Positions 47,949 through 58,492 of a stretch of DNA of 64,000 bases are shown here, piece after piece. Below the pieces are notes generated by a model. The model was not told the origin of the DNA. It did not search any database and was given only the letters and a program-made list of their open reading frames with translations. A program made the position numbers and the translations under genes. How positions within the stretch are numbered: position 1 is the stretch's first letter; the number at the start of each line of letters is the position of its first letter. This stretch comes from an uncultured Oscillospiraceae bacterium (lineage in GTDB: Bacteria; Bacillota; Clostridia; Oscillospirales; Oscillospiraceae), in NCBI GenBank assembly GCA_944386985.1, contig CALXDD010000012.1, forward strand, positions 153 through 64,152. Direction: 5' to 3'.

Positions 47949-48671
47949 CTATATGTTATTATTTGACTCCAGAGAATTTAATATGCTTTCCAACGGATCC
48001 CAGAAGCAATATCTCCGGATCTCCTTCGACAGCTCCGGGTGCTGGCGCAATTGACGTACGATCACCGGGAATTCTGTGCATCCAAGAATCACGTTGGAGG
48101 ACGGAAATCCAGACAGGAAGTCCACCAACCGAAGAAGAATCTCTTCGTTCACGTTGTTTTGCTTTACCGCCTCAATAAAAAGTCTCAATGTGGGATACTG
48201 CTTTTCTGTGGGGCTGGTGCAGTCGATATGAAAATTCGCCAGACGCAGGCCGTACAGGTTCTTTGCCAAAGTTCCCTCCGCAGCCAGGACGGTGACGTCA
48301 TGGACCTGTGCTGACTGCAATTCGGCGCCCAGCGTATCCACCATATGAATCACTCGCGGCTCTGCTTCAGGGACCACTTGGAATACGTCCTCCAGGAAGC
48401 AATGGGCCGCGCCACACACCAGAATAATTTTTTCTACATTTTCCCGCAGCATCAGCCGCATGGACTGCGCCATCGCCTGTACAATTTCCTCCCGGCCTGA
48501 GCCGCTCAGGAGGCATCTGGTTCTGCTGGGCATTTTGAAATTGTTGTCCATGACGATGCGGGGATAATTTCGTTCACAGTCTGAACGGAATCTGATAAAG
48601 AGGCGCGATAAGAAATCCAAGGTTGCAAATGCGCCGAAGCCGCCTATAATGCCAATGCTGTCATACTTCAT
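47949..48671 (-). CDS. Aspartate/glutamate racemase family protein
   Basis: 240 aa. GIIGGFG start, with Cys motifs LVCGAAHCF and ILGCTEFPV. Confidence 0.85.
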   Translation of the reverse strand: MKYDSIGIIGGFGAFATLDFLSRLFIRFRSDCERNYPRIVMDNNFKMPSRTRCLLSGSGREEIVQAMAQSMRLMLRENVEKIILVCGAAHCFLEDVFQVVPEAEPRVIHMVDTLGAELQSAQVHDVTVLAAEGTLAKNLYGLRLANFHIDCTSPTEKQYPTLRLFIEAVKQNNVNEEILLRLVDFLSGFPSSNVILGCTEFPVIVRQLRQHPELSKEIRRYCFWDPLESILNSLESNNNI

Positions 48672-48849
48672 CGGTCATGCCTTTCTCCCTTTCCAAGGCC
48701 AGCGCAAAGAGTTCCGGATCAATCTTTTCTCTCTGATACGACTGGCTTGAAACGCAGCTGCAGCAAAATCCCATCCAAGCCAGGGCGTTGGTCCATCGCA
48801 TCTCCCGTGTAACTTCTCTTGATAGCGTTGTGCTAAATTTATTGTTTCC

Positions 48850-49515
48850 TTACCAGCAATAACCATATTGGGGGTCAGACAGCACCGCCTGTGCATATTG
48901 AATATCCTTCGGCGTGTCAATTTCCAAACGCTCCACAAGGCACGCCGGAAGCGGCAAAAAATGTTCCAGCTGTTGATAGACATATGTATTTTTATCTGCC
49001 AGCAGCTTGGAGTGTACAACAGCAATATTGGACCACTCATATTCACTTCTGGCCGTTCGGGAGAAGGAGTGAATACAGTGATTTTGGTCCAGGTGAACAA
49101 AGACCGCGTCCTCACTGTTCACCGGAGCGATTCCTATCACCGTCTCTCCCTGTGCATAGTCCAGGAAAGCAGACAGGCTCTCCCGCTGCGGAATAATATC
49201 CCCGTCCAGCAGAAGAAACGGCTCATCCAGATCTTTGACGCCCAGATAGTAGCTTTGCAGCGTGTTGGTCGTGGCGTAATCCCGGTTGACAACGATCTCA
49301 ATGTCAGGCCGCAGCGCCTTTGCGGCGGCGGCGGCTTCTTCCCCATGGTAGCCCACAACAATGCGTACATGGGGGAATTCACGCAGCAATTCCAACTGGT
49401 AGGAGAGGATACTGCGTCCGTTGACCTCAACAAGGGCTTTAGGAATGCCGCGCTGCAGTCTGCTCCCCATTCCCGCGGCTGCAATGACCGCATATCGAAC
49501 GGAGTCTTTCATCAC
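48850..49515 (-). CDS. Nucleotidyltransferase (LicC/cytidylyltransferase-like)
   Basis: 221 aa. The N-terminal AVIAAAGMGSRL...PKALV is an NTP-transferase signature. The start overlaps the methyltransferase stop (GTG at 49515 or ATG at 49512). Confidence 0.85.
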   Translation of the reverse strand: MMKDSVRYAVIAAAGMGSRLQRGIPKALVEVNGRSILSYQLELLREFPHVRIVVGYHGEEAAAAAKALRPDIEIVVNRDYATTNTLQSYYLGVKDLDEPFLLLDGDIIPQRESLSAFLDYAQGETVIGIAPVNSEDAVFVHLDQNHCIHSFSRTARSEYEWSNIAVVHSKLLADKNTYVYQQLEHFLPLPACLVERLEIDTPKDIQYAQAVLSDPQYGYCW

Positions 49516-50258
49516 TTCATCCCCAAATTCTTTCTTAGAATAAAATAGAATTGTGCCGTTTCCTTGCGGTTATTGAGGGCGGCATTGTCAAACATCGGAC
49601 CATGCTCACAGAGGGTAAAGGCCGGCGCATTTTCGGTAAGCATGGCCAGATATTCCTCCTTGGTCCGGTAAATGGTATTGTACTCATGCTGCAGCTCCTC
49701 GGAGTAGAACTCCTTCAGGGTAAGCCGGTCAGACAGGCCCATCGGCTCACGCAGGTATACAACCGCATGGTCCTGCGTCAGCCCGTCCAGCGCTTGAAAA
49801 ACTTGTTTGACATCTCTGTCATTCAAATACATCATGACGCCGGAAATAATGACGTGCGTGGCCGGAGGAATCTGATTTTTGTGATAAAATTCTTCAATGT
49901 GGGGGGCTGAAACACATGCAAACGTAAAATTTGATTTCTTATTCCTCTGCTTTGAAATGCTTATGAGTTCTTCTGAAAAATCGCATCCCAAATAGGCGTC
50001 TATTTCCTGTGAAATGGCATCTGCCCAGCGCCCTACGCCACAGCCAATATCCAAAACGCGGGAATGGCTGTCAAGCTGGAGCAACGGCAGGATCTTTGCG
50101 ATTTCGATCTGATTTCTCTCTTCGGCAATCTCCGGATGATTGTCCTGATACATAGTGGAGATGTACGGATGCTCAGGATCATATTTTTTCGCTCTGTCCG
50201 CATAGAAGACCTTCGTCTTTTCATATGCAATCTCTACCTGTTCACCAACAATTCTCAT
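49512..50258 (-). CDS. Class I SAM-dependent methyltransferase
   Basis: 248 aa. Motif I VLDIGCGVGRWA. Confidence 0.9.
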   Translation of the reverse strand: MRIVGEQVEIAYEKTKVFYADRAKKYDPEHPYISTMYQDNHPEIAEERNQIEIAKILPLLQLDSHSRVLDIGCGVGRWADAISQEIDAYLGCDFSEELISISKQRNKKSNFTFACVSAPHIEEFYHKNQIPPATHVIISGVMMYLNDRDVKQVFQALDGLTQDHAVVYLREPMGLSDRLTLKEFYSEELQHEYNTIYRTKEEYLAMLTENAPAFTLCEHGPMFDNAALNNRKETAQFYFILRKNLGMK

Positions 50259-50315
50259 GCAAGCAATTCCTTTTCATTTTTGTAAAACCACTCTCATCCG
50301 CCATATGCGGCCGGA

Positions 50316-51758
50316 TCAAAGGCACTCCTCAAAAAGCGCTTCCCAGAGATGATCGCAGATCCGTTCCGCCGCCCTTCCATCCGCCAGCGGAAGGTATTGG
50401 GCACGCACCTCTGCCCGGATGGCGCGATTGGGATCTTCTCCCCTCCTCACGCGCTCCAAAAAGGCAATGATCCCCTCGCAGTCTGTCGCCTGCTCCATCC
50501 AGTGGTTGCTCACCATTTGTTCCTCAGACGTTTTCACTGCCAAAGTCTTTCCAGGAATCTGGACCCAGAGCAGCGGCTTGTCCAACAGCAGATACTGGAT
50601 CATCATGGAGCTGAAATCCGAGACCTGGCCATGGGAACAGACAAAGGAGGGGCCGTATTCCGGTTCTGTGTCCAGCACCAGATTGCTGCCGGCGCGCACC
50701 GTGTCCATCATACGTTCCAGCTTGCGGTACTGCTCCGGCTCATGGAGCTTCATCACTGCTTCCGACATGGGGTGCGGCCGCCAAATCAGCGCGTACTCCT
50801 GATGCGCAGCAAACCAGGGGAGCATCTGGTCCAGCAAATCCAGGGAGGAAGCATTGCCATCAAACCAGGTGTTCCAGAGAATGACTGTCCGCCCCTCCAC
50901 CTTCGGCTGCCATGCCTGAGGAATCCCACAGGGATTTTGCTTCAAATGAACCGCATAGTCCATTTTGGGGATTCCGGTCACCATCAGGTTTTCGCCGTGG
51001 CGCTGGTTGTACCGCGCGAAATAATTGGCAAAACGCGGGGATGAGCCGGCAATGCGCCAGGCATAGGTGTGGATGGGCATGTTGCACAGGGTCACCCTGG
51101 AATCCGAATACATCATATGGGGGATAAAATAGGGCAGATACACCAGACGCGTATATTTTGCAATATTTTCCGCCCAGAATTCCGGCGTGGTGACGCTCTC
51201 ATAGGGCTGGCAGGTGAACGCCAGCTCCGGGCAGTCCTGCTCGGGATTGTACTCCCAGTAGTTCTGAAAGGGAATTCCCATCCCGGTCAAATAGTCCTCA
51301 TAAATGAGCTCCACCTCGGTCTTCCCATCGATCTCCCTGGCCCGGAAAATAGGGGTCAGGACTACCATCGGGTCAAAGCGGGGATCCTGCCGCATGGTCT
51401 GATAGACCGAGTCCATGGAATCCCACTTGCCCCCCAGCTCCGCAAAGAAGACCGCCCGGACCTGAACGGAGATATCGTCCCGCATAGAGCGGCGCAGATG
51501 CTCCAGCCGCTCGGCCACATCATCCGGCAGCGGCAGACGCCATTGGGTTTGCACCTGCTCCAGCAGATCCATCGGCGTTGTGTTTTTCCAGTCGGGCTGC
51601 GCTTGACGCAGAATCGTTTCAATCTGCCCAAACATCTGCGCACCACTTTGAATCAAGTCTTGACACAATTCTGAATTGCCGCTGCTGTGAATATACTCAG
51701 CGGCTTCCGTCAGTGTGCGGCACACTTCATCCAGTTGTACCAGTCTTGAAAAGCGCAT
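50316..51758 (-). CDS. CDP-glycerol glycerophosphotransferase (TagB/TagF) family protein
   Basis: 480 aa. TagF-like C-terminal half (ALIWRPHPMSE...SDFSSMMIQYLLLDKP). Confidence 0.85.
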   Translation of the reverse strand: MRFSRLVQLDEVCRTLTEAAEYIHSSGNSELCQDLIQSGAQMFGQIETILRQAQPDWKNTTPMDLLEQVQTQWRLPLPDDVAERLEHLRRSMRDDISVQVRAVFFAELGGKWDSMDSVYQTMRQDPRFDPMVVLTPIFRAREIDGKTEVELIYEDYLTGMGIPFQNYWEYNPEQDCPELAFTCQPYESVTTPEFWAENIAKYTRLVYLPYFIPHMMYSDSRVTLCNMPIHTYAWRIAGSSPRFANYFARYNQRHGENLMVTGIPKMDYAVHLKQNPCGIPQAWQPKVEGRTVILWNTWFDGNASSLDLLDQMLPWFAAHQEYALIWRPHPMSEAVMKLHEPEQYRKLERMMDTVRAGSNLVLDTEPEYGPSFVCSHGQVSDFSSMMIQYLLLDKPLLWVQIPGKTLAVKTSEEQMVSNHWMEQATDCEGIIAFLERVRRGEDPNRAIRAEVRAQYLPLADGRAAERICDHLWEALFEECL

Positions 51759-51771
51759 ACTCTCTCCCTCT

Positions 51772-52965
51772 CTATTTCCCGCAGGTTTCGATCAATTCTT
51801 TTAGAATGGCCGTGGTCTTTTTCGCGCCTGATGGGCTCAAATGATCCTGGTCAATGTAATCTACAGGCTGAAGCAGGCTGACCTCATGGAAGTCCAGAAA
51901 ATGGTACTCCCCTTCTACTGCGTCCAGCGCTGCAAAATAGTCCTCTTTCAACCTGGGGTCCAAATGGCGCAGATAGTACTCAGTCTGCGGCATGCACAAA
52001 ATGTAAACATTGATTTTTTTCTCATTGCAGTATGAGACAAAATCCTTCAAAACGGCGCTGTTTTCCCGGTAACTCTCCACATGACGCAGCAGTTTGTTAT
52101 GGTCCCGGCACCGAGCCTGGGCAAAGACGTCTTTCACAGATGGCGGAAGCATTTTCCAGGCAAACTCGCCGGGAGTCCTCTGATCTGACAGCTCCCGCAA
52201 GCAGCGGTTGCATATCCTCCATCCATCGGTACTGCTGAAAGCGAAGCTCCGTGTTATTTTCACGGACTCCCCGCCCATCTGCTCATAAAACTGCCTGCAA
52301 TAGTGCTCCAATACCCGATGCTCGTCCAAAAAAGAGAGTTCCTCCAAAAGCATCCTATCCGGCGCCGCAGCATCCGAAATACCGGCGTGGTGCGCATCCT
52401 TTAAAACAGGGTAGTAGGTATCCCGGATCAGTCCTCTGGCATAGGCGCTGTCCGCCCGGGAGATATCGGAATAAAACCAGTAGTAGCCGCTGGCCAGAAC
52501 GATGTGGCGGAGGTTGGGGTTGCGCCGGATCACCGTTTCGGCCAGTTTGCAGGTATAATAGATGTCCTGGGCGTCCAGACCCAAATTTACACAGGAGGCT
52601 CCCAGCCCCGGCGCCCACAGGCCGTATTTGGCATAGGAGGAACCCAGAATCACCGTGTCGGTGGAGGGCCTGCTTGCTTTTTCCAGGGCATACTCCAAAT
52701 AGTACTGCTCCGCTTCACAGTAGGCCGTCCAGGAGATTTCCTGAAGATAGGCGTCCAGAGTATCCCAGCAAAGGATCGGCGGATTCTTTTCAATCTCCAC
52801 AAAAGGCAGACGTTTTATGTCGGCTTTGGTGGGAATGACAAGGAGAGAGACGTCGTCCGGGACCACAGCTTCTCTCGGGAGGCTTGTCAGCTGCACTCCC
52901 TCGGCCATCATTTGCTTGAGAAGCTCAAAAGTCTCATCATCCAAGAATTTGCAATATATCTGCAC
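51772..52965 (-). CDS. Uncharacterised protein with SGNH/DltD-like features
   Basis: 397 aa. VILGSSYAKYG (a possible nucleophile Ser block) and a C-terminal DQDHLS (DxxH-like block). Assignment is tentative. Confidence 0.7.
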   Translation of the reverse strand: MQIYCKFLDDETFELLKQMMAEGVQLTSLPREAVVPDDVSLLVIPTKADIKRLPFVEIEKNPPILCWDTLDAYLQEISWTAYCEAEQYYLEYALEKASRPSTDTVILGSSYAKYGLWAPGLGASCVNLGLDAQDIYYTCKLAETVIRRNPNLRHIVLASGYYWFYSDISRADSAYARGLIRDTYYPVLKDAHHAGISDAAAPDRMLLEELSFLDEHRVLEHYCRQFYEQMGGESVKITRSFAFSSTDGWRICNRCLRELSDQRTPGEFAWKMLPPSVKDVFAQARCRDHNKLLRHVESYRENSAVLKDFVSYCNEKKINVYILCMPQTEYYLRHLDPRLKEDYFAALDAVEGEYHFLDFHEVSLLQPVDYIDQDHLSPSGAKKTTAILKELIETCGK

Positions 52966-53051
52966 GGTTTCACCTAATTTCTATTTCAAGATACGGTCCC
53001 ACTCTTGTCTGACTGCCAGCAATAAAAGGTCTGCTTAAAATCTGAGTTCTA

Positions 53052-55190
53052 TCAGAGCTCAACATCCTCAATCAAATAGGCTACCTTCTGATAGGCCGCA
53101 CTTTGCTTCAACGCCGCTACCGCAGGGTCGTTAGAGGGGTATTGCACCAAAATGGCGCGGACATTTTTTGCCAATGCCAAAAGTTCAGGCGACACTTGTT
53201 GCTGCATCTCTTTTTTTTCGTACTCCACCAAAAATGTCACAAAAGCTTTCATTTGAGGAGCAGCGCGAAGGGCCGAACGAAGGGAACGAATATACGCAGC
53301 CTTGTCTCCTTGTATCTGTAACGAACGAGCTGTCAGATAGATTAACGAAAACTTGTCGATTTCGTTGAGCGCACAGCAGGCACCTTGACAAGCCAGCACT
53401 TCCGGAGCGTAACAGTGGTTCAGAAAGTTCTCTGCCGTATTCGAATAAGCTTCACTTAGCAAAAGAGCGGTCTCTGAGTCTGAAAAATTCTTTTTTTGCA
53501 TCAGCGCTGCCGCCAGCATCCAATAGAGCATCTGAATCTGGGACAGAGAATCAAGGTCAATTTTCTCCTTTTGCGAGAGGATCAGTGAAGCAAAATCTTC
53601 ACACATTTCCGCCAATGTCAGGGCGGTTGTCTGCAGCCATTTTACGCTCTGTTGCGCCATACTGTCTGGGAATATGGCCCCATATTTCAATGCATGGGCC
53701 AACGCCTGGGGCGGAAATGCATCCCAGTCCTCTACCTCAGACAAAAACTTACTAATCTCTTTATCATCAGAAGCCGCCATTACTTTTGCCGCCAGCCCGA
53801 AGGAGCCCGGTGACATCAATAAAATCCGCCATGCTTCTTCCGGCTCATCCGCTGATTCCGCCTTTTTGCTTGAGAATAGCACCTGACAAATTGCCTGGAA
53901 AGCATCGCGCTGCCTTTTTTCCCACGCAGAAACCTCTGCATTCATATAGTTCGCGTCGATTGTATGCACCATCTGTGCCATAAGCTCCTGTGCATTAGGG
54001 TTGTCTTTGTGCAGAATAAGCGCTTTGACCCAGTCCTGAATACTTTCTCCCGGTACTTGATGAATAGGCCAGTCAGCCAGCATGTCCAGCGACTTTTTTG
54101 ATTTTCCTATTTTCTCCAGGGCAATCGAAGCAATGGCTTTCACCTTAAAGCTGTGTGTAATATCTGCCGCACCCAAAACGCTGGTTGCCGACTCTAAAAC
54201 GGGCACGTCCTTTTTCTGATATTGCGTAAACGTCCGCAGATACTTTTTGGTCAATTCCGGCAGCCTGTCATAGTGTTTGCGCTCATATTCCAGCAAAATC
54301 TCGGCAAATGTTGTATCCAGTTTGGTCGCTATGTGGGTAGGATAATGTTCTTTACTCCACCGAATCCACTCCTCTGCCTGGGGCAATTGCAGCACTGTCC
54401 CAAATAGGGCGCAGTGGGCAGCAAGACCGGGTGCGCTGACACTTTGAAGGACATTCTGATCCGCATGCTGCAATACCTGAGCACTCTGTACCACATACGC
54501 AGCCCGCCTGTTGGGAAATCTGCTGGAGGATTCTATACACTGGCCCAAACGGGTCAAGTCATCTGGGTGCTGCTCCAGTTCCTTATCCAGCAAGTCCAGA
54601 TTGCGCCTTGCCTTGGCCTCCTGGGCTTCAGGCGACTCCAATGCATAGCCGTCATGGTGCAGAATGATTCCCGGCAAACATCCTATCAGCTCCGCAGTAA
54701 GCTGGCGTCCGTTTTTGCTGAAAACCTCATGAATGGTTCCCCTATAACGAATGCCAATCCCCAGCCGCGCCATTCTCAATACCAAAAAATCGGAGCATAC
54801 GCCCTCCTGCATCTCAGGAGTCAGGTAATTGCGCACTGTAATAAGGCAGGTATCCGGCCAGCTGGATTCCGGTTCACAAAACAGGCATCGCAGTTCATCA
54901 ATATTGGGGTCCAAATATTCGTCGGCATCTATGGCTAAATACCATTTTCCGCTACAGCGCTCCATTACAGCATTTCGCGCTGCGGAAAAGTCGTTGACCC
55001 ACGGAAAATCAAACAAAATATCCGCATACTGTTCCGCTATCTCCCGGGTACCATCCGTGGAACCGGTATCGGCAATTACCAGTTCACAAGAAATGGCCTT
55101 CCGTAAGGGCTGAAGAGCTTTCATGCATTTTTCAATGCATCGAATCTCATTTTTTACAATCATGCCAATGGAGAGGACAGGGGATTCCAT
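53052..55190 (-). CDS. Family-2 glycosyltransferase with a long helical (TPR-like) C-terminal region; candidate flagellin glycosyltransferase
   Basis: 712 aa. N-terminal GT2 motifs LSIGMIVKNE..., ADTGSTDGT, DADE. First gene downstream of the flagellin. Confidence 0.85.
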   Translation of the reverse strand: MESPVLSIGMIVKNEIRCIEKCMKALQPLRKAISCELVIADTGSTDGTREIAEQYADILFDFPWVNDFSAARNAVMERCSGKWYLAIDADEYLDPNIDELRCLFCEPESSWPDTCLITVRNYLTPEMQEGVCSDFLVLRMARLGIGIRYRGTIHEVFSKNGRQLTAELIGCLPGIILHHDGYALESPEAQEAKARRNLDLLDKELEQHPDDLTRLGQCIESSSRFPNRRAAYVVQSAQVLQHADQNVLQSVSAPGLAAHCALFGTVLQLPQAEEWIRWSKEHYPTHIATKLDTTFAEILLEYERKHYDRLPELTKKYLRTFTQYQKKDVPVLESATSVLGAADITHSFKVKAIASIALEKIGKSKKSLDMLADWPIHQVPGESIQDWVKALILHKDNPNAQELMAQMVHTIDANYMNAEVSAWEKRQRDAFQAICQVLFSSKKAESADEPEEAWRILLMSPGSFGLAAKVMAASDDKEISKFLSEVEDWDAFPPQALAHALKYGAIFPDSMAQQSVKWLQTTALTLAEMCEDFASLILSQKEKIDLDSLSQIQMLYWMLAAALMQKKNFSDSETALLLSEAYSNTAENFLNHCYAPEVLACQGACCALNEIDKFSLIYLTARSLQIQGDKAAYIRSLRSALRAAPQMKAFVTFLVEYEKKEMQQQVSPELLALAKNVRAILVQYPSNDPAVAALKQSAAYQKVAYLIEDVEL

Positions 55191-55219
55191 GCTTGCTCAC
55201 ATCCTTTTCTGCGAGAGTT

Positions 55220-55285
55220 CCCTTTCCTTACCTGGAGAATGCCTCTCCAGGTAAGGAAAGGGGCCGGCCCAATCGGGCCGGCCCC
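55220..55285 (-). terminator. Two tandem GC-rich hairpins between flagellin and the glycosyltransferase (terminator, attenuator or processing site)
   Basis: Hairpin 1: GGGGCCGGCCC-gatt-GGGCCGGCCCC. Hairpin 2: CCCTTTCCTTACCTGGAGA-ggcat-TCTCCAGGTAAGGAAAGGG, a 19-bp stem. No T-run. Confidence 0.55.
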
Positions 55286-55330
55286 GCCATCTGCCATATA
55301 GTCCGTTGATTCGTAATGCGGTCAATAGGC

Positions 55331-56143
55331 TTACTGCAGCAGCTGCAGCACACCCTGAGGCACCGCGTTGGCCTGGGCCAGCATGGCCTGGGCAGACTGG
55401 ATGAGAATATTGTTCTTGGTGTAGGCCATCATCTCTTCGGCAACGTCGGTGTCGCGGATGGTGGACTCGGCGTCCTGAATGTTCTCGGTCATGACGCCCA
55501 GGTTGTTGATGGTATGCTCCAAACGGTTCTGGACGGCGCCCAGTTTGCCACGGATGGTGGAAACCGACTTTATCGCGGCATTGATGGTGCTGATTGCAGC
55601 CTGAGCACCGGTCTGAGTGCTGATATTCAGCTTGCTGATACTCAAAGAAGAGGTGCTCAACTGACCCACAGTAACGGTGAGACGGTTTACGGCGTTGTTC
55701 GTCTCGCCGATCTGGAAGGTGATGCCGGCGGTGGTGAACATATTCTGGCCGTTAAAATTGCTGGCGCTGCCGATACGATTGATTTCTTTTAACAGAGCGG
55801 TTACCTCTTCCTGCAGGCTGTCACGGTCGGTCTTCTCATAAGTGCCGTTAGCGGACTGGGTGGCCAGCTCCACCATACGGTTGAGCATATCGTGGACCTC
55901 GGTCAGGGCGCCTTCAGCGGTCTGCACCAGGGAGATACCGTCCTTGGCGTTGTCCTGAGCCTTCTCCAGGCCGGTGATCTGAGCGCGCATCTTCTCGCTG
56001 ATGGCCAGACCGGCGGCGTCATCACCGGCGCGGTTGATCTTGTAGCCGGAGGACAGCTTCTCCAGATTCTTGCTCAGAGCGCTGGTGTTGGTGTTGTAGT
56101 TACGGTAGGCGTTCATCGCCATGATGTTGTGTTGAATCCTCAT
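55331..56143 (-). CDS. fliC: Flagellin (short, D0/D1-only type)
   Basis: 270 aa. N-terminus MRIQHNIMAMNAYRNYNTNTSALSKNLEKLSSGYKINRAGDDAAGLAISEKMR. C-terminus LAQANAVPQGVLQLLQ. The centre is Ser/Thr-rich. Confidence 0.97.
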   Translation of the reverse strand: MRIQHNIMAMNAYRNYNTNTSALSKNLEKLSSGYKINRAGDDAAGLAISEKMRAQITGLEKAQDNAKDGISLVQTAEGALTEVHDMLNRMVELATQSANGTYEKTDRDSLQEEVTALLKEINRIGSASNFNGQNMFTTAGITFQIGETNNAVNRLTVTVGQLSTSSLSISKLNISTQTGAQAAISTINAAIKSVSTIRGKLGAVQNRLEHTINNLGVMTENIQDAESTIRDTDVAEEMMAYTKNNILIQSAQAMLAQANAVPQGVLQLLQ

Positions 56144-56149
56144 TTTAAT

Positions 56150-56320
56150 TGCTTCCTTTCAATATAAAATGGCTGTTTTTAGAGGAGTGCTGCGTTGCGC
56201 CTCAATTTCCTTATTTCAGCGCATCTGGTTTGGCGCGTTCAAAGCCGGACTCCGTGGCCTTTGTCATCCGGCCTCTCCCGCACGGTTTATCTATTCCAAC
56301 CGGCTCGCGAGGCCGGATGA
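56150..56320 (-). promoter_or_regulatory. Flagellin leader and promoter region
   Basis: Minus strand reads TAAA, 13 nt, GCCGGATGA, an imperfect match to the sigma-D/sigma-28 consensus TAAA-N15-GCCGATAA. A 12-bp perfect inverted repeat TCATCCGGCCTC (56264-56275) / GAGGCCGGATGA (56309-56320) competes with the hairpin CCGGC..GCCGG (56300-56316). Two A(N)GGA motifs are present (56207-56212 and, in the SD, 56153-56157). Confidence 0.4.
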
Positions 56321-56344
56321 AATCAAAACAAAAAATAATATTAT

Positions 56345-56620
56345 GCTGAGTGGACTGCCCGGAGGCACCGGGCTTCGGGCGCGTCTCCCGTCCTCTCGGC
56401 GGGGGAGTAGCCCTCTGTTCTTCCCACCCGGCGGCTTTTGGGGGAAGCGCCAACCGAACCGGCAAACGCTTTTGCCGGTCAGGTCAGCACTCCCCGGCCG
56501 CACCCATGGGCATTCACCGGCGTCCCGACCGGCATAGCAAGGGGAAATCGGCAGGCTCAGGCGACGCCCGCCTGCTGATCAAAGGCCGCAAGGCCAAAGT
56601 CCCGGATATTCCGGGCGGTA
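56345..56620 (-). ncRNA. Candidate omega-RNA / guide-RNA scaffold of the TnpB-like gene
   Basis: About 200 nt of GC-rich, hairpin-dense sequence follows the tnpB-like stop (for example CCGGCAAA-agcg-TTTGCCGG and GCCCGG-tgcct-CCGGGC). It ends abruptly at about 56350, where AT-rich sequence begins. The assignment rests only on this position, which is where TnpB-family omega RNAs lie. Confidence 0.3.
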
Positions 56621-57723
56621 TTTTCATCGCGGTTCAGCTGCTCTCCGCAGTGGGGGCATACCCAGGTTCTGCGGCGCGCCGGCAGCTTCTCATTCACACA
56701 GCCGCAGGCGTGGCAGGTCCTGGCAGCGGGGAGATAGGGGTCTACATCGATGTACTGCTTGCCCTGCTCCTCCAGCTTGTAGCGCAGGAACTCCCGGAAC
56801 ATGCCGAAGCCGGAGTCCAGCACGTTTCCGCCCTCGAGGCGCTGGGCCATCACATTCAGGTCGGCCCCCCGCACACACACGGCGTCCCAGGCGTTGGCTA
56901 TCCGCCTGCTCTGCTGGTGCGCGAAGTCCCGGCGCTGGTTTGCGATATGCTCATACTGGAGCCGGACTTTCTGAAGCTGCTTTTCGTAGTTTCCGGAGCC
57001 CCTCTGCATCCGGGAGAGCTTGCTTTGCATCCGGGCCAGCTTCTCTCTGGCGGCCGCCATCTGCGGCGGGATCTCCGGACTGCCGCCGCTGCTGTCTACA
57101 TAGAAATGGGCCATGGAGTAATTGAGGCCCACAGTCCGCTGAGGGGTTGGGACGACAGGCTCCGGAATCTCGGTCTCATATCCGAAGGCCATGGAACAGA
57201 AATACTTTCCGGTTTTTGTCTTGGTGATGGTCACAGACCGCAGCGACCACCAGTGCAGAGGCTTCCTGTACAGCTTCACCTTGAGCAGCCCCAGCTTGGG
57301 CATCTGCAATCCCGCGCCGGTGAGGCGCAGGGACGGCCCGGTGTGATAGGGGCGGCTGTAAACGGTAAAGGAGTCCTTGCGTGCCTTCTTGGTCTTGGGC
57401 CTGGGGTACTGGAAAACCCTCGGGTTTCGGAAAAAATCCAGAAAAGCTTTGCGCAGGCTCTGGTGCACCGCACAGAGGGCCTGACTGTCCACCTCCTTGA
57501 GGAAGGGGGCGCCCTTTTTGTACCGGGCGGGGGTAGGGATATAGTGGACGTCCGTGGCCGCATAGAACTCCTGAACGTCAGAGAGCATCTGATTCCAGAG
57601 GTAGCGGCAGCAGCCAAAGGTTTTTTCCATCAGCTCCGCCTGCTCCGGCGTGGGGTAGACGGGAACCTTGAGGACGGTATATCGGACGGTTTTGGCGGGA
57701 CTCTCTTTGGGTTTGCTTGGCAT
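56557..57723 (-). CDS. tnpB: TnpB-like (IS605 OrfB family) protein with substituted RuvC catalytic residues
   Basis: Start trimmed to MPSKPKESPAKTVRY. 388 aa. OrfB hallmarks: TFGCCRYLWNQ, LKEVDSQAL, zinc ribbon CHACG..CPHCG, and RDENTARNI. RuvC-I reads VGLN (Asn201 where Asp is expected). RuvC-II reads VCVRGADLNV (no Glu). The RuvC-III Asp366 is retained. Confidence 0.9.
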   Translation of the reverse strand: MPSKPKESPAKTVRYTVLKVPVYPTPEQAELMEKTFGCCRYLWNQMLSDVQEFYAATDVHYIPTPARYKKGAPFLKEVDSQALCAVHQSLRKAFLDFFRNPRVFQYPRPKTKKARKDSFTVYSRPYHTGPSLRLTGAGLQMPKLGLLKVKLYRKPLHWWSLRSVTITKTKTGKYFCSMAFGYETEIPEPVVPTPQRTVGLNYSMAHFYVDSSGGSPEIPPQMAAAREKLARMQSKLSRMQRGSGNYEKQLQKVRLQYEHIANQRRDFAHQQSRRIANAWDAVCVRGADLNVMAQRLEGGNVLDSGFGMFREFLRYKLEEQGKQYIDVDPYLPAARTCHACGCVNEKLPARRRTWVCPHCGEQLNRDENTARNIRDFGLAAFDQQAGVA

Positions 57724-57831
57724 CTCCGTCCGCGCTCCTTTCCTTCTGCTTCGGGTCTCCGTCTCCGGCCCGCCGGCAATCACGTTCCCCCGCGTCTGAC
57801 AGGAGGCAGTCAAAAACTCATGTGCAATGGA

Positions 57832-58305
57832 TCAGGCCCCGGTCTGTTCATGGCGGGCCGTATTCTCCTGAGCGCTGCCGCTTTGGGCGGCCTCTATGGC
57901 GGCGAATCTGCCGCACAGGGCTTTCAGCTTTTCCTGTACCCCTGCGCTTCCATGCGCTGCCATCCACTCGTCCAGATGATCCGCAACCTCCGCCAGCTCC
58001 CGCAGCGTCTCTTCTCTTTCTTCCGCTGCGCTTTGGCGCTGCCGTTCACGCTCGGCTTTCTCTTCCAGCCGCTCCGCGTGACGTTTCGCGTCGTATCTGC
58101 GCCTGGCCATACTTTTCGGCCGCTTTTCCAGCAGGCCGTCCGGACGTTCGCCCGAGCGCTCGTGAACCTCGCCCCGGAGAACGGAAACCTCCCTGGGAGC
58201 CTTCACCGACACGCAAAAAGCCGAGCCGGACTGCTTGAACACCTGCACGGTGATGTCCTCCCCGATGGTGAGGTACTCGCCGGATTTCAGTTGCAGCGAG
58301 AGCAT
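57832..58305 (-). CDS. CsrA-like RNA-binding protein with a ~95-aa charged, helical C-terminal extension
   Basis: Start trimmed to MLSLQLKSGEYLTIGEDITVQVFKQSGSAFCVSVKAPREVSVLRGEVHER, which matches the CsrA pattern ML.L.R..GE...IGD.I.V.V......V.IGI.AP..V.V.R.E. Strong RBS GAAGGAGA. 157 aa versus about 70-75 aa for canonical CsrA. Confidence 0.8.
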   Translation of the reverse strand: MLSLQLKSGEYLTIGEDITVQVFKQSGSAFCVSVKAPREVSVLRGEVHERSGERPDGLLEKRPKSMARRRYDAKRHAERLEEKAERERQRQSAAEEREETLRELAEVADHLDEWMAAHGSAGVQEKLKALCGRFAAIEAAQSGSAQENTARHEQTGA

Positions 58306-58360
58306 AAAAGTCTCCTTCTCCAGCCGGGCGCTTCCCTGCGCCGTGCGGGTTTGCGCTTGT

Positions 58361-58492
58361 GTAGGTTTACAAATACACTTTTTCAAACTGCCTTCACTAT
58401 TTCTTTCGGCTGAATTTTTAGAAAATTAAGGTCTCTGACAGAATTTTTTTATTCGCCTGATCAGTTTGTAAACCTACACTTTTTCAAACTGC
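58361..58492. repeat. Inverted and direct repeat array between the recombinase and the CsrA-like gene
   Basis: Perfect 13-bp inverted repeat: GTAGGTTTACAAA (58361-58373) / TTTGTAAACCTAC (58465-58477). Perfect 18-bp direct repeat TACACTTTTTCAAACTGC at 58374-58391 and 58475-58492. Confidence 0.9.

Follow-up and report, generated by a model that had tools for sequence, protein, structure and literature searches.

A csrA-associated TldR gene in a probable phase-variable flagellin-switch cassette of an uncultured Oscillospiraceae bacterium

The csrA-associated TldRs of Clostridia were first noted in a 2023 preprint (Wiegand et al., PMC10705468) and were later characterised by Walker, Richard et al. 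(Nat Microbiol 2026, PMC13418256), the published members including OspTldR of Oscillibacter sp. 1-3, Fpl, Fpl2 and Fpl3 of Flavonifractor plautii, Isp of Intestinibacillus, and others. RNA immunoprecipitation sequencing (RIP-seq) and chromatin immunoprecipitation sequencing (ChIP-seq) in E. coli demonstrated that guide RNAs direct these proteins into fliC open reading frames (ORFs), and the published homologues target alternative fliC genes (PMC13418256). RNase III cleaves the expanded stem-loop of the guide RNA, one Oscillibacter genome holds four cross-targeting loci, and a hin gene with an inverton of about 120 bp carrying a FliA-dependent promoter is found upstream of most, not all, loci, F. 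plautii included (PMC13418256). The fliCP-associated TldRs form a separate TldR group in the published analysis (Wiegand et al., PMC10705468). Here we describe a tldR gene in a stretch of 64,000 nucleotides from an uncultured Oscillospiraceae bacterium (assembly GCA_944386985.1, contig CALXDD010000012.1, positions 153 to 64,152), referred to below as the window. With considerable confidence, the gene is deduced to be a TldR of the csrA-associated clostridial clade, located in a phase-variable flagellin-switch cassette made up of hin, an inverton, csrA, tldR, a guide RNA and a flagellin gene, and the cassette probably silences a rival flagellin gene.

The window TldR was found by BLASTP to be 47 to 54% identical over about 370 amino acids (E 1e-137 to 1e-154) to the seven tested TldRs of the published Table S3, and it has the motifs GL[N/K]YS and AVCVR in common with them. 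The window CsrA is 47% identical to the CsrA of Fpl3, with the unusual C-terminal extension included (Walker, Richard 2026). From the identity, the motifs and the likeness of CsrA it was concluded that the window holds a further member of the published clade, and the locus is a new member of an already published system type. As in that clade, an N/K-R-x active-site pattern is combined with csrA and flagellin partners, hin and a sigma-D/FliA promoter inverton of about 120 bp lie upstream, a guide RNA with an expanded hairpin lies downstream of the gene, and the predicted target is inside flagellin ORFs rather than in promoters. The window locus differs in having the minority gene order with csrA first, in having Asp at the third RuvC position where most members have Glu, and in its minimal flagellin of 270 amino acids. 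For comparison, the Oscillibacter protein WP_016324391.1 is given as N/R/E in Table S2 (PMC13418256). Its gene falls inside L048, one of the related loci analysed below, and L064 lies on the genome record listed for OspTldR in Table S3.

The encoded protein was confirmed to be a full-length TnpB with RuvC sites I and II substituted. The Pfam domains HTH_OrfB_IS605, OrfB_IS605 and Cas12f1-like_TNB were assigned to it, and it scored 229 bits against the guided_TnpB subfamily model of NCBIfam, for which the cut-off is 100. In a phmmer comparison with all PDB chains, ISDra2 TnpB (8bf8/8exa/8h1j) aligned nearly end to end with residues 13 to 380 (E ~3e-37). In this alignment ISDra2 D191 corresponds to N201 (GVDVG versus GLNYS), encoded by AAT as the reverse complement of 57121-57123; E278 corresponds to R285 (IGTEHLK versus CVRGADL), whose codon lies at 56869-56871; and D361 corresponds to D366 (DRDENAALNI versus NRDENTARNI), where Asp is kept and is encoded by GAT as the reverse complement of 56626-56628. 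The same three columns were obtained from an independent alignment with an AI-designed TnpB (9yyg). In place of the D-E-D triad of canonical TnpB, the window protein carries N201, R285 and D366. The zinc-ribbon CxxC...CxxC is intact, and its cysteines C337, C340, C356 and C359 are invariant across the family alignment.

An AlphaFold2 model built from an alignment of 35 homologues had a mean predicted local distance difference test (pLDDT) score of 86. In this model N201 lies in the strand 197-203, R285 closes the strand 281-285 and D366 opens the helix 365-387, and the three residues are modelled at the usual RuvC positions. The best PDB match found with Foldseek was 8H1J, the ternary complex of ISDra2 TnpB, with template modelling (TM) scores of 0.77/0.82 and an E value of 1e-26. 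An earlier sequence-only reading of this DNA had aligned the ORF by eye, and its assignments were borne out: an Asn (AAT, 57121-57123) replaces the Asp of RuvC-I, no Glu is present in RuvC-II, the Asp of RuvC-III is kept and the zinc ribbon is intact. In the alignments, sites I and II are likewise occupied by Asn and Arg instead of Asp and Glu, and the predicted fold was that of ISDra2 TnpB. With ISDra2 TnpB the window protein has in common its fold, domain order and zinc ribbon, and also an omega-RNA encoded at and past the 3' end of the gene, with the guide at its 3' terminus. It differs in the change of D191/E278/D361 to N201/R285/D366, in its longer scaffold, and in the lack of tnpA and of mobility; its role would be regulatory and not transposon homing.

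The substitutions are a property of the family. A collection of 5.8 billion proteins contained 3073 relatives at E <= 1e-20, and the best 120 of these, 56 to 99% identical to the window TldR, were aligned with the query to give 121 sequences. Site I was Asn in 104 of the 121 and site II was Arg in 106 of them, and the D-E-D triad was absent from all 120 of these best homologues. Site III was Glu in 83 sequences, Asp in 13, Ala in 11, Gly in 8 and Ser in 5, and this drift across the family is as expected if catalysis is no longer under selection. The exact window TldR was matched on two short contigs only. Comparison with three orthologues that were 84 to 86% identical (from Ca. Flavonifractor merdavium, Flavonifractor sp. 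An306 and an Intestinimonas metagenome-assembled genome) gave a ratio of nonsynonymous to synonymous substitution rates (dN/dS) of 0.14 at a dS of ~0.6. Close relatives ranged from 0.09 to 0.14 and distant pairs from 0.20 to 0.27, and the tldR ORF was intact in every orthologue examined. The purifying selection that the sequence-only reading had anticipated is apparent in these ratios, and the gene, judged from its sequence, is under such selection despite a dead active site and is not decaying. The low dN/dS together with the intact orthologous ORFs argues for an exapted gene rather than for pseudogene decay.

The arrangement of the cassette was compared among related loci. A scan of GTDB species-representative genomes with a family profile yielded 80 loci, all from Oscillospiraceae-type Clostridia, the genera including Flavonifractor, Intestinimonas, Oscillibacter, Lawsonibacter, Butyricicoccus, Agathobaculum and Flintibacter. 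A flagellin gene lies 3' of tldR in 75 of the 80 loci, and in 63 of 63 where at least 1.5 kb of downstream sequence was available. The csrA gene adjoins tldR in 69 of 80, and a hin homologue is found no more than 1.3 kb upstream of tldR in 43 of the 67 loci with enough upstream sequence. The order hin-csrA-tldR-gRNA-fliC (gRNA, guide RNA), which is that of the window, was seen in 9 of the 80 loci, while hin-tldR-gRNA-csrA-fliC was seen in 61.

The sequence-only reading had described a solo TnpB gene without tnpA, directly upstream of a flagellin gene. The flagellin gene does lie 413 nt downstream on the same strand, and neither tnpA (Y1 transposase) nor a second TnpB was found in the 64-kb window, in which transposon ends were not explicitly searched for. 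The gene is not solo, however, as csrA lies immediately upstream, a serine recombinase gene lies two genes upstream and a guide RNA occupies the 413-nt gap. That reading had seen neither csrA, nor the invertase with its inverton, nor the guide RNA, nor the published status of the flagellin/csrA-linked clostridial TldR clade. Searches of the window by tblastn and regular expression detected no second tldR, flagellin, csrA, hin or guide RNA. No phage genes were found near the cassette, and conspecific contigs from many samples all show it in the same chromosomal surroundings; the system is chromosomal.

The guide RNA was recognised from an alignment of 28 loci. The family scaffold consists of stem 1 (CCGGyCGGGACrCCGG), a variable expanded hairpin, an invariant GGTGGGAA..AGAGGGC core and a terminal stem GCCC..GGGC, and it closes with AGTCCAC. 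The corresponding parts in the window are stem 1 (CCGGTCGGGACGCCGG), a long expanded hairpin, the same core, a terminal stem GCCCGG..CCGGGC and the 3' end AGTCCAC. Compensatory changes were observed in 30 of the 38 RNAalifold pairs. Paired cells amounted to 92.7%, compared with 36 to 49% when the 3' partners were slid by 1 to 3 columns, and none of 500 column shuffles reached the observed covariation. The single-sequence fold of the window scaffold gave z = -3.1. The 5' end of the scaffold may extend into the tldR ORF. A search of Rfam with the 54-60 kb region at E <= 1 returned no known RNA family for the guide RNA, the only matches being two chance ones to microRNA models.

The boundary between conserved scaffold and variable guide is visible in about 50 loci, and after GTCCAC the sequence mimics the 5' end of flagellin ORFs. 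In most loci, the window included, the guide is TCARCAYAATATTAT(G) and equals nt 9-24 of the flagellin ORF. A second group has GAGAATTCAACATAAT or GCGTATTCAGCATAAC, which equals nt 3-18, and a third begins around nt 13-16. All conspecific contigs covering the region carry the same guide as the window. The guide of L005 (Flavonifractor sp. An306) is also identical to it, and that of L003 (Ca. F. merdavium) differs at guide position 13. The guide has the sequence of the coding strand and would hence be complementary to the template strand. Immediately 5' of the matched sequence, the non-target strand reads ..AGAAT or ..CGTAT (codons 1-3) in the register of the window and ..GAT, ..TAT or ..AAT in the second register. 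These flanks suggest a target-adjacent motif (TAM) of the ..WAT type, related to the TTGAT of ISDra2.

Sequences matching the window guide were found at the expected place in other flagellin genes. The flagellin ORFs of L079 and L065 match all 15 nt of the guide at nt 9-23. In metagenome contigs, 24 exact matches to ATTCAGCATAATATTATGGC were found, and 20 of the 24 lay at nt 7-26 of flagellin ORFs, mostly on high-G+C contigs; the 20 matched starts read ATG MGN ATT CAG CAT AAT ATT ATG GC. Several of these flagellin genes adjoin csrA/tldR. The matched flagellin gene of L086 stands alone, having no tldR, csrA or hin within 5 kb upstream. Suitable protospacers, matched exactly together with the putative TAM in flagellin ORFs from related genomes and metagenomes, occur in nature where the model needs them. 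The flagellin gene of the window cassette itself reads TCAACACAACATCAT at codons 3-8 and has four mismatches to the guide (positions 4, 7, 10 and 13), all of them synonymous. The guide matches this gene at 11/16 positions at best; the mismatch at position 4 falls in the seed, and conspecific contigs covering the region show the same pattern. The proposal of an exapted, nuclease-dead TnpB of the TldR kind, already made by the sequence-only reading, is supported by alignment, fold, selection, synteny and a guide RNA whose guide matches flagellin coding sequence.

A different guide was observed in an Oscillibacter-type subclade (L048, L060, L061, L067, L046, L051, L052, L054, L064 and L072-L077), where it reads AATATTATGACGATGA (or ..ACTATGA). 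The fetched tldR-linked flagellins of this subclade all read ..ATTATGGCGATGA, and ATGACNATGAA was present in no fetched flagellin. The true targets of the subclade may lie beyond the loci fetched; if not, a fixed mismatch would have to be tolerated.

The phase-variable element is an inverton in the 187-bp spacer between hin and csrA, with repeat arms found by a repeat search to be 100% complementary. The promoter predicted within it has the -35 element CTTAA (58430-58426), a spacer of 15 nt and the -10 element GCCGAAAG (58410-58403). The sigma-D/FliA consensus is TAAA-N15-GCCGATAT, which the window promoter resembles, and related invertons have GCCGATAT or GCCGAATA as the -10 at the same place. 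Toward csrA, the inner segment reads ..CCTTAATTTTCTAAAAATTCAGCCGAAAGAAATAG.. in the window and in the related locus L003. The related locus L005 (Flavonifractor sp. An306) carries the reverse complement of this segment between collinear flanks. Both orientations occur among related genomes, L005 and many others being OFF. As the promoter faces the operon in the orientation of the window, the inverton was assigned as ON in the window and likewise in L003.

The boundaries of the inverton (58462-58491 and 58347-58390) resemble composite, imperfectly palindromic recombinase sites, an example being CAGTTTGTAAA-CCTACACT-TTTTCAAACTG on the hin side. They are reminiscent of hix sites, with the 15-bp perfect repeat spanning the centre and the inner half-site. 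In addition, the last 105 nt of L114, a conspecific Logan contig of 2829 nt, stop exactly at the hin-distal boundary of the inner segment. A break of this kind is expected if both orientations coexist in the sample, and it is not proof that they do.

The observed fold, substitutions, purifying selection, synteny, RNA scaffold and guide, inverton polymorphism among relatives and protospacers in other flagellins form the basis on which we infer transcription, loading, binding, repression, the TAM and a target in the genome of this organism. The proposed sequence of events is as follows. When the inverton is ON, transcription by sigma-D RNA polymerase would cover csrA, tldR and the guide RNA, and probably also the cassette's own flagellin gene. 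TldR would load the scaffold RNA of about 190 nt and use its 3' 15 nt (TCAGCATAATATTAT) as guide. By pairing with the template strand in codons 3-8 of a different flagellin gene elsewhere in the genome, beside a ..GWAT motif in codons 1-3, the guide would form an R-loop. Because Asn and Arg occupy RuvC sites I and II, binding without cleavage is expected, and the bound TldR would block transcription of the rival flagellin gene without cutting it. CsrA would add translational repression. The cassette's own flagellin gene would be spared from TldR by its four synonymous mismatches to the guide at third codon positions, of which that at position 4 is in the seed. Inversion of the promoter by hin would turn the programme off. 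The net result would be exchange of the filament subunit for a minimal flagellin of 270 amino acids, which is possibly glycosylated.

Other explanations of the locus were weighed against this one. Absence of tnpA from the window and loss of catalytic residues could be taken to mean that a decaying IS200/IS605 insertion sequence, a TnpB gene without tnpA, is drifting toward a pseudogene and adjoins a flagellin gene by coincidence. We give this next to no credence. The ORF is intact in all orthologues examined at dN/dS of 0.09 to 0.27, the N/R substitutions persist in homologues down to 56% identity, the flagellin/csrA/hin synteny is kept in 80 species-level genomes, the structure of the downstream RNA is maintained by compensatory changes and the guide is conserved; by these data the explanation is effectively refuted. 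It is also highly improbable that the protein is an active RNA-guided nuclease or nickase with a non-canonical metal site, formed by D366 with D288 or with an acidic residue 286 in relatives, and acting, for example, to trigger recombination of flagellin paralogues. The retention of the full RuvC/TNB fold and zinc ribbon fits such an activity, as do the Asp at site III in the window TldR and in 13 of the 121 sequences, the at least 90% conservation of D288 and the Asp or Glu at 286, directly after R285, in many relatives. Against it, site I is Asn, His, Lys or Ser and site II is Arg or Lys in essentially all members, site III is freely Ala, Gly or Ser in otherwise conserved relatives, and position 286 is Gly in the window TldR. 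Furthermore, for homologues of the clade, ChIP-seq in E. coli showed guide-dependent peaks at genomic sites (PMC13418256), and peaks in living cells are hard to square with cleavage of the chromosome.

Negative autoregulation, in which TldR would mainly target its own operon through the adjacent flagellin gene, was deemed very unlikely for the window. All guides of the clade mimic the highly conserved N-terminal coding sequence of flagellin, and in L041 (5242-5453) and L079 (11134-11338), both in csrA-first order, guides of the GAGAATTCAACATAAT type match the adjacent downstream flagellin gene at 16/16 and 15/16 positions, respectively. From these sequences, some cassettes may repress their own flagellin, unlike that of the window, where the match is 11/16. 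The four mismatches of the window guide, one in the seed, are kept in the conspecific contigs, and the alternative fliC genes targeted by the published homologues (PMC13418256) also speak for a target other than the adjacent gene.

Several observations weigh against the switch model itself. No target of the guide with two or fewer mismatches is present in the 64-kb window, so that a target would have to be elsewhere in the genome. In genomes with two or three tldR loci, the guides match other tldR-linked flagellins at 12 to 14 of 16 positions only, and the actual targets there are probably flagellins outside the fetched loci. The inverton was ON in all 10 of 10 conspecific contigs from independent metagenomes; inversion was seen between close species and not within this species. 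The leader hairpin upstream of the flagellin gene, described below, may act as a separate promoter or processing element of that gene, in which case the single-transcript model would be weakened. Finally, the Asp at position 366 is kept and D288 hardly varies (at least 90% conserved); with these residues in place, loss of all catalysis is a point that we infer from the sequence.

A bolder form of the switch model, which we consider rather doubtful, is that the csrA-first variant is a self-contained, phase-variable flagellin replacement cassette, with a single csrA-tldR-guide-flagellin RNA, a hairpin as boundary and self/non-self distinction by synonymous codons. The single RNA may then come from one invertible sigma-D promoter, and the leader hairpin, about 10 nt after the guide, may set both the 3' end of the guide and the 5' end of the flagellin mRNA. 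Discrimination of paralogues may in that case rest only on the four synonymous changes in codons 3-8. A less likely extension of this form is that D366 and D288 give residual nicking that promotes recombination among flagellin paralogues.

The features of the cassette and its surroundings are collected in Table 1.

Table 1. Coordinates of the cassette features in the window, in order of position.
Feature	Position	Strand	Basis or remarks
Intrinsic terminator after flagellin	55260-55285	minus	11-bp all-GC stem, then TTTCCTT
Flagellin gene, minimal 270-amino-acid form	55331-56143	minus	Pfam Flagellin_N and Flagellin_C; NCBIfam flagellin Hag
Flagellin 5' leader with two GGA motifs	56144-56222	minus	sequence reading
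Leader hairpin GATTTCAtCCGGCC..GGCCGGtTGGAATAG	56291-56324	minus	about 150 nt upstream of the flagellin ATG; conserved
Guide, 15 nt, TCAGCATAATATTAT	56335-56349	minus	directly 3' of scaffold end GTCCAC
Guide-RNA scaffold (omega-RNA-derived)	56350-56540	minus	28-locus alignment, covariation; 5' boundary approximate
tldR (TnpB-like, 388 amino acids from ATG)	56557-57723	minus	Pfam, NCBIfam, phmmer, AlphaFold2/Foldseek, selection
csrA with C-terminal extension, 157 amino acids from ATG at 58305	57832-58305	minus	Pfam CsrA; NCBIfam CsrA
Promoter inverton, 121 bp	58359-58479		15-bp perfect inverted repeats 58359-58373 and 58465-58479, 91-bp segment between
Sigma-D/FliA-type promoter (predicted) within inverton	58403-58430	minus	sequence reading; faces csrA-tldR-fliC
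hin-like small serine DNA invertase, 202 amino acids	58493-59101	minus	Pfam Resolvase catalytic domain, residues 4-147

A TTG-extended version of the tldR ORF reaches 57813. A plus-strand ORF of 687 amino acids (56350-58413), antisense to tldR/csrA, was rejected as a high-G+C artefact with only its length behind it; it could mislead gene callers.

For the recombinase, the closest NCBIfam models were the Mpi-family master DNA invertase and XisF. Its assignment as the TnpA of IS607 was considered and rejected: the transpos_IS607 model gave only 23 bits, with the cut-off at 110, and the best relatives were DNA invertases. The catalytic domain is N-terminal, unlike that of IS607 TnpA, in which an N-terminal MerR-like helix-turn-helix precedes the catalytic domain. 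The gene is separated from tldR by csrA and is flanked by the promoter inverton.

The CsrA match covered residues 28-77 of the long ORF with Pfam and residues 1-50 of the short form with NCBIfam. The long ORF, of 184 amino acids from a TTG, was rejected as an over-extension into the inverton; the form of 157 amino acids is the one called on conspecific contigs, and its ATG has a good ribosome-binding site. Beyond the 50-residue CsrA fold the protein carries a charged tail of about 100 residues. In three conspecific metagenome contigs (L109 3797-4120, L113 2024-2347 and L115 1423-1746) an in-frame deletion removes 50 residues of this tail (107 versus 157 amino acids), which implies that part of the extension is dispensable or variable.

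The window flagellin comprises the conserved N- and C-terminal domains only. Its equivalents in L003 (11584-13356) and L005 (11532-13148) are of about 540 to 590 amino acids and have a hypervariable middle. In the leader of the window gene, the first GGA lies as AAGGA in the loop of a hairpin GCGC..GCGC (56222-56197), and the second lies in the Shine-Dalgarno sequence AAAGGAAG (56160-56151). Both are putative CsrA sites, on the analogy of B. subtilis hag and of the CAAGGAUG stem-loop motif (Walker, Richard 2026; PMC13418256).

Further upstream, the leader hairpin is found at -142 to -156 of nearly all related flagellin genes, including ones without tldR nearby. Its pattern in the lineage (L003-L082, L085-L106) is GGTTTCA-n-CCGGCTGACGAGCCGG-n-TGAAATA; the outer stem UUUCA/UGAAA is invariant, and CG<->UA changes occur at two pairs of the inner stem. 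No Rfam family matches the hairpin; its candidate roles are those of promoter, processing site, attenuator and protein-binding site. Its resemblance to the AGCCGnnnGAAATAG of the inverton raised the candidate of a second sigma-D promoter, which was rejected because the GCCG changes together with its pairing partner instead of being conserved. No terminator-like site was found on the minus strand from the inverton to the flagellin terminator.

The flagellin gene is included in a stretch of lower G+C content at 48000-56000 (0.51-0.52, versus about 0.60 in most other parts of the window). Downstream of it on the same strand are genes for a family 2 glycosyltransferase (GT2) of 712 amino acids with a SunS-like N terminus, a protein without a family match, a glycerophosphotransferase-like protein and an S-adenosylmethionine (SAM) methyltransferase. 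This stretch is probably an island for flagellin glycosylation or modification.

The cassette can also be set beside better-known flagellin switches. In Salmonella hin-fljBA, a Hin-type invertase flips the promoter for an alternative flagellin gene and a repressor of the other flagellin. The repressor there is the protein FljA, whereas in the window the presumed repressors are an RNA-guided TnpB derivative and CsrA; furthermore, the window inverton is about 120 bp long with hin outside it, compared with about 1 kb in Salmonella. The fliCP-associated TldRs of Enterobacteriaceae prophages likewise consist of a nuclease-dead TnpB derivative beside an alternative flagellin gene, with a guide RNA that shuts off the competing flagellin and so swaps the filament type. 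They are, however, prophage-borne, lack csrA and hin and target the promoter region of the host fliC, while the window system is chromosomal and its guide matches the start of an ORF.

The current picture of TldR systems is unchanged by the window locus. The locus is a clean and complete example from a Flavonifractor/Intestinimonas-like gut bacterium, with its guide, a putative TAM context and an ON inverton, and it is useful for annotation because models of the PGAP type would still call the gene an RNA-guided endonuclease. Its own flagellin gene, differing from the guide only at synonymous sites, is a natural 'escape' allele that is useful for experiments on mismatch tolerance. More broadly, TldRs show a selfish transposon nuclease turned into a programmable transcription factor, and the csrA-linked clade couples this factor to phase variation and to translational control of flagellin, which is a major antigen and TLR5 ligand in gut commensals.

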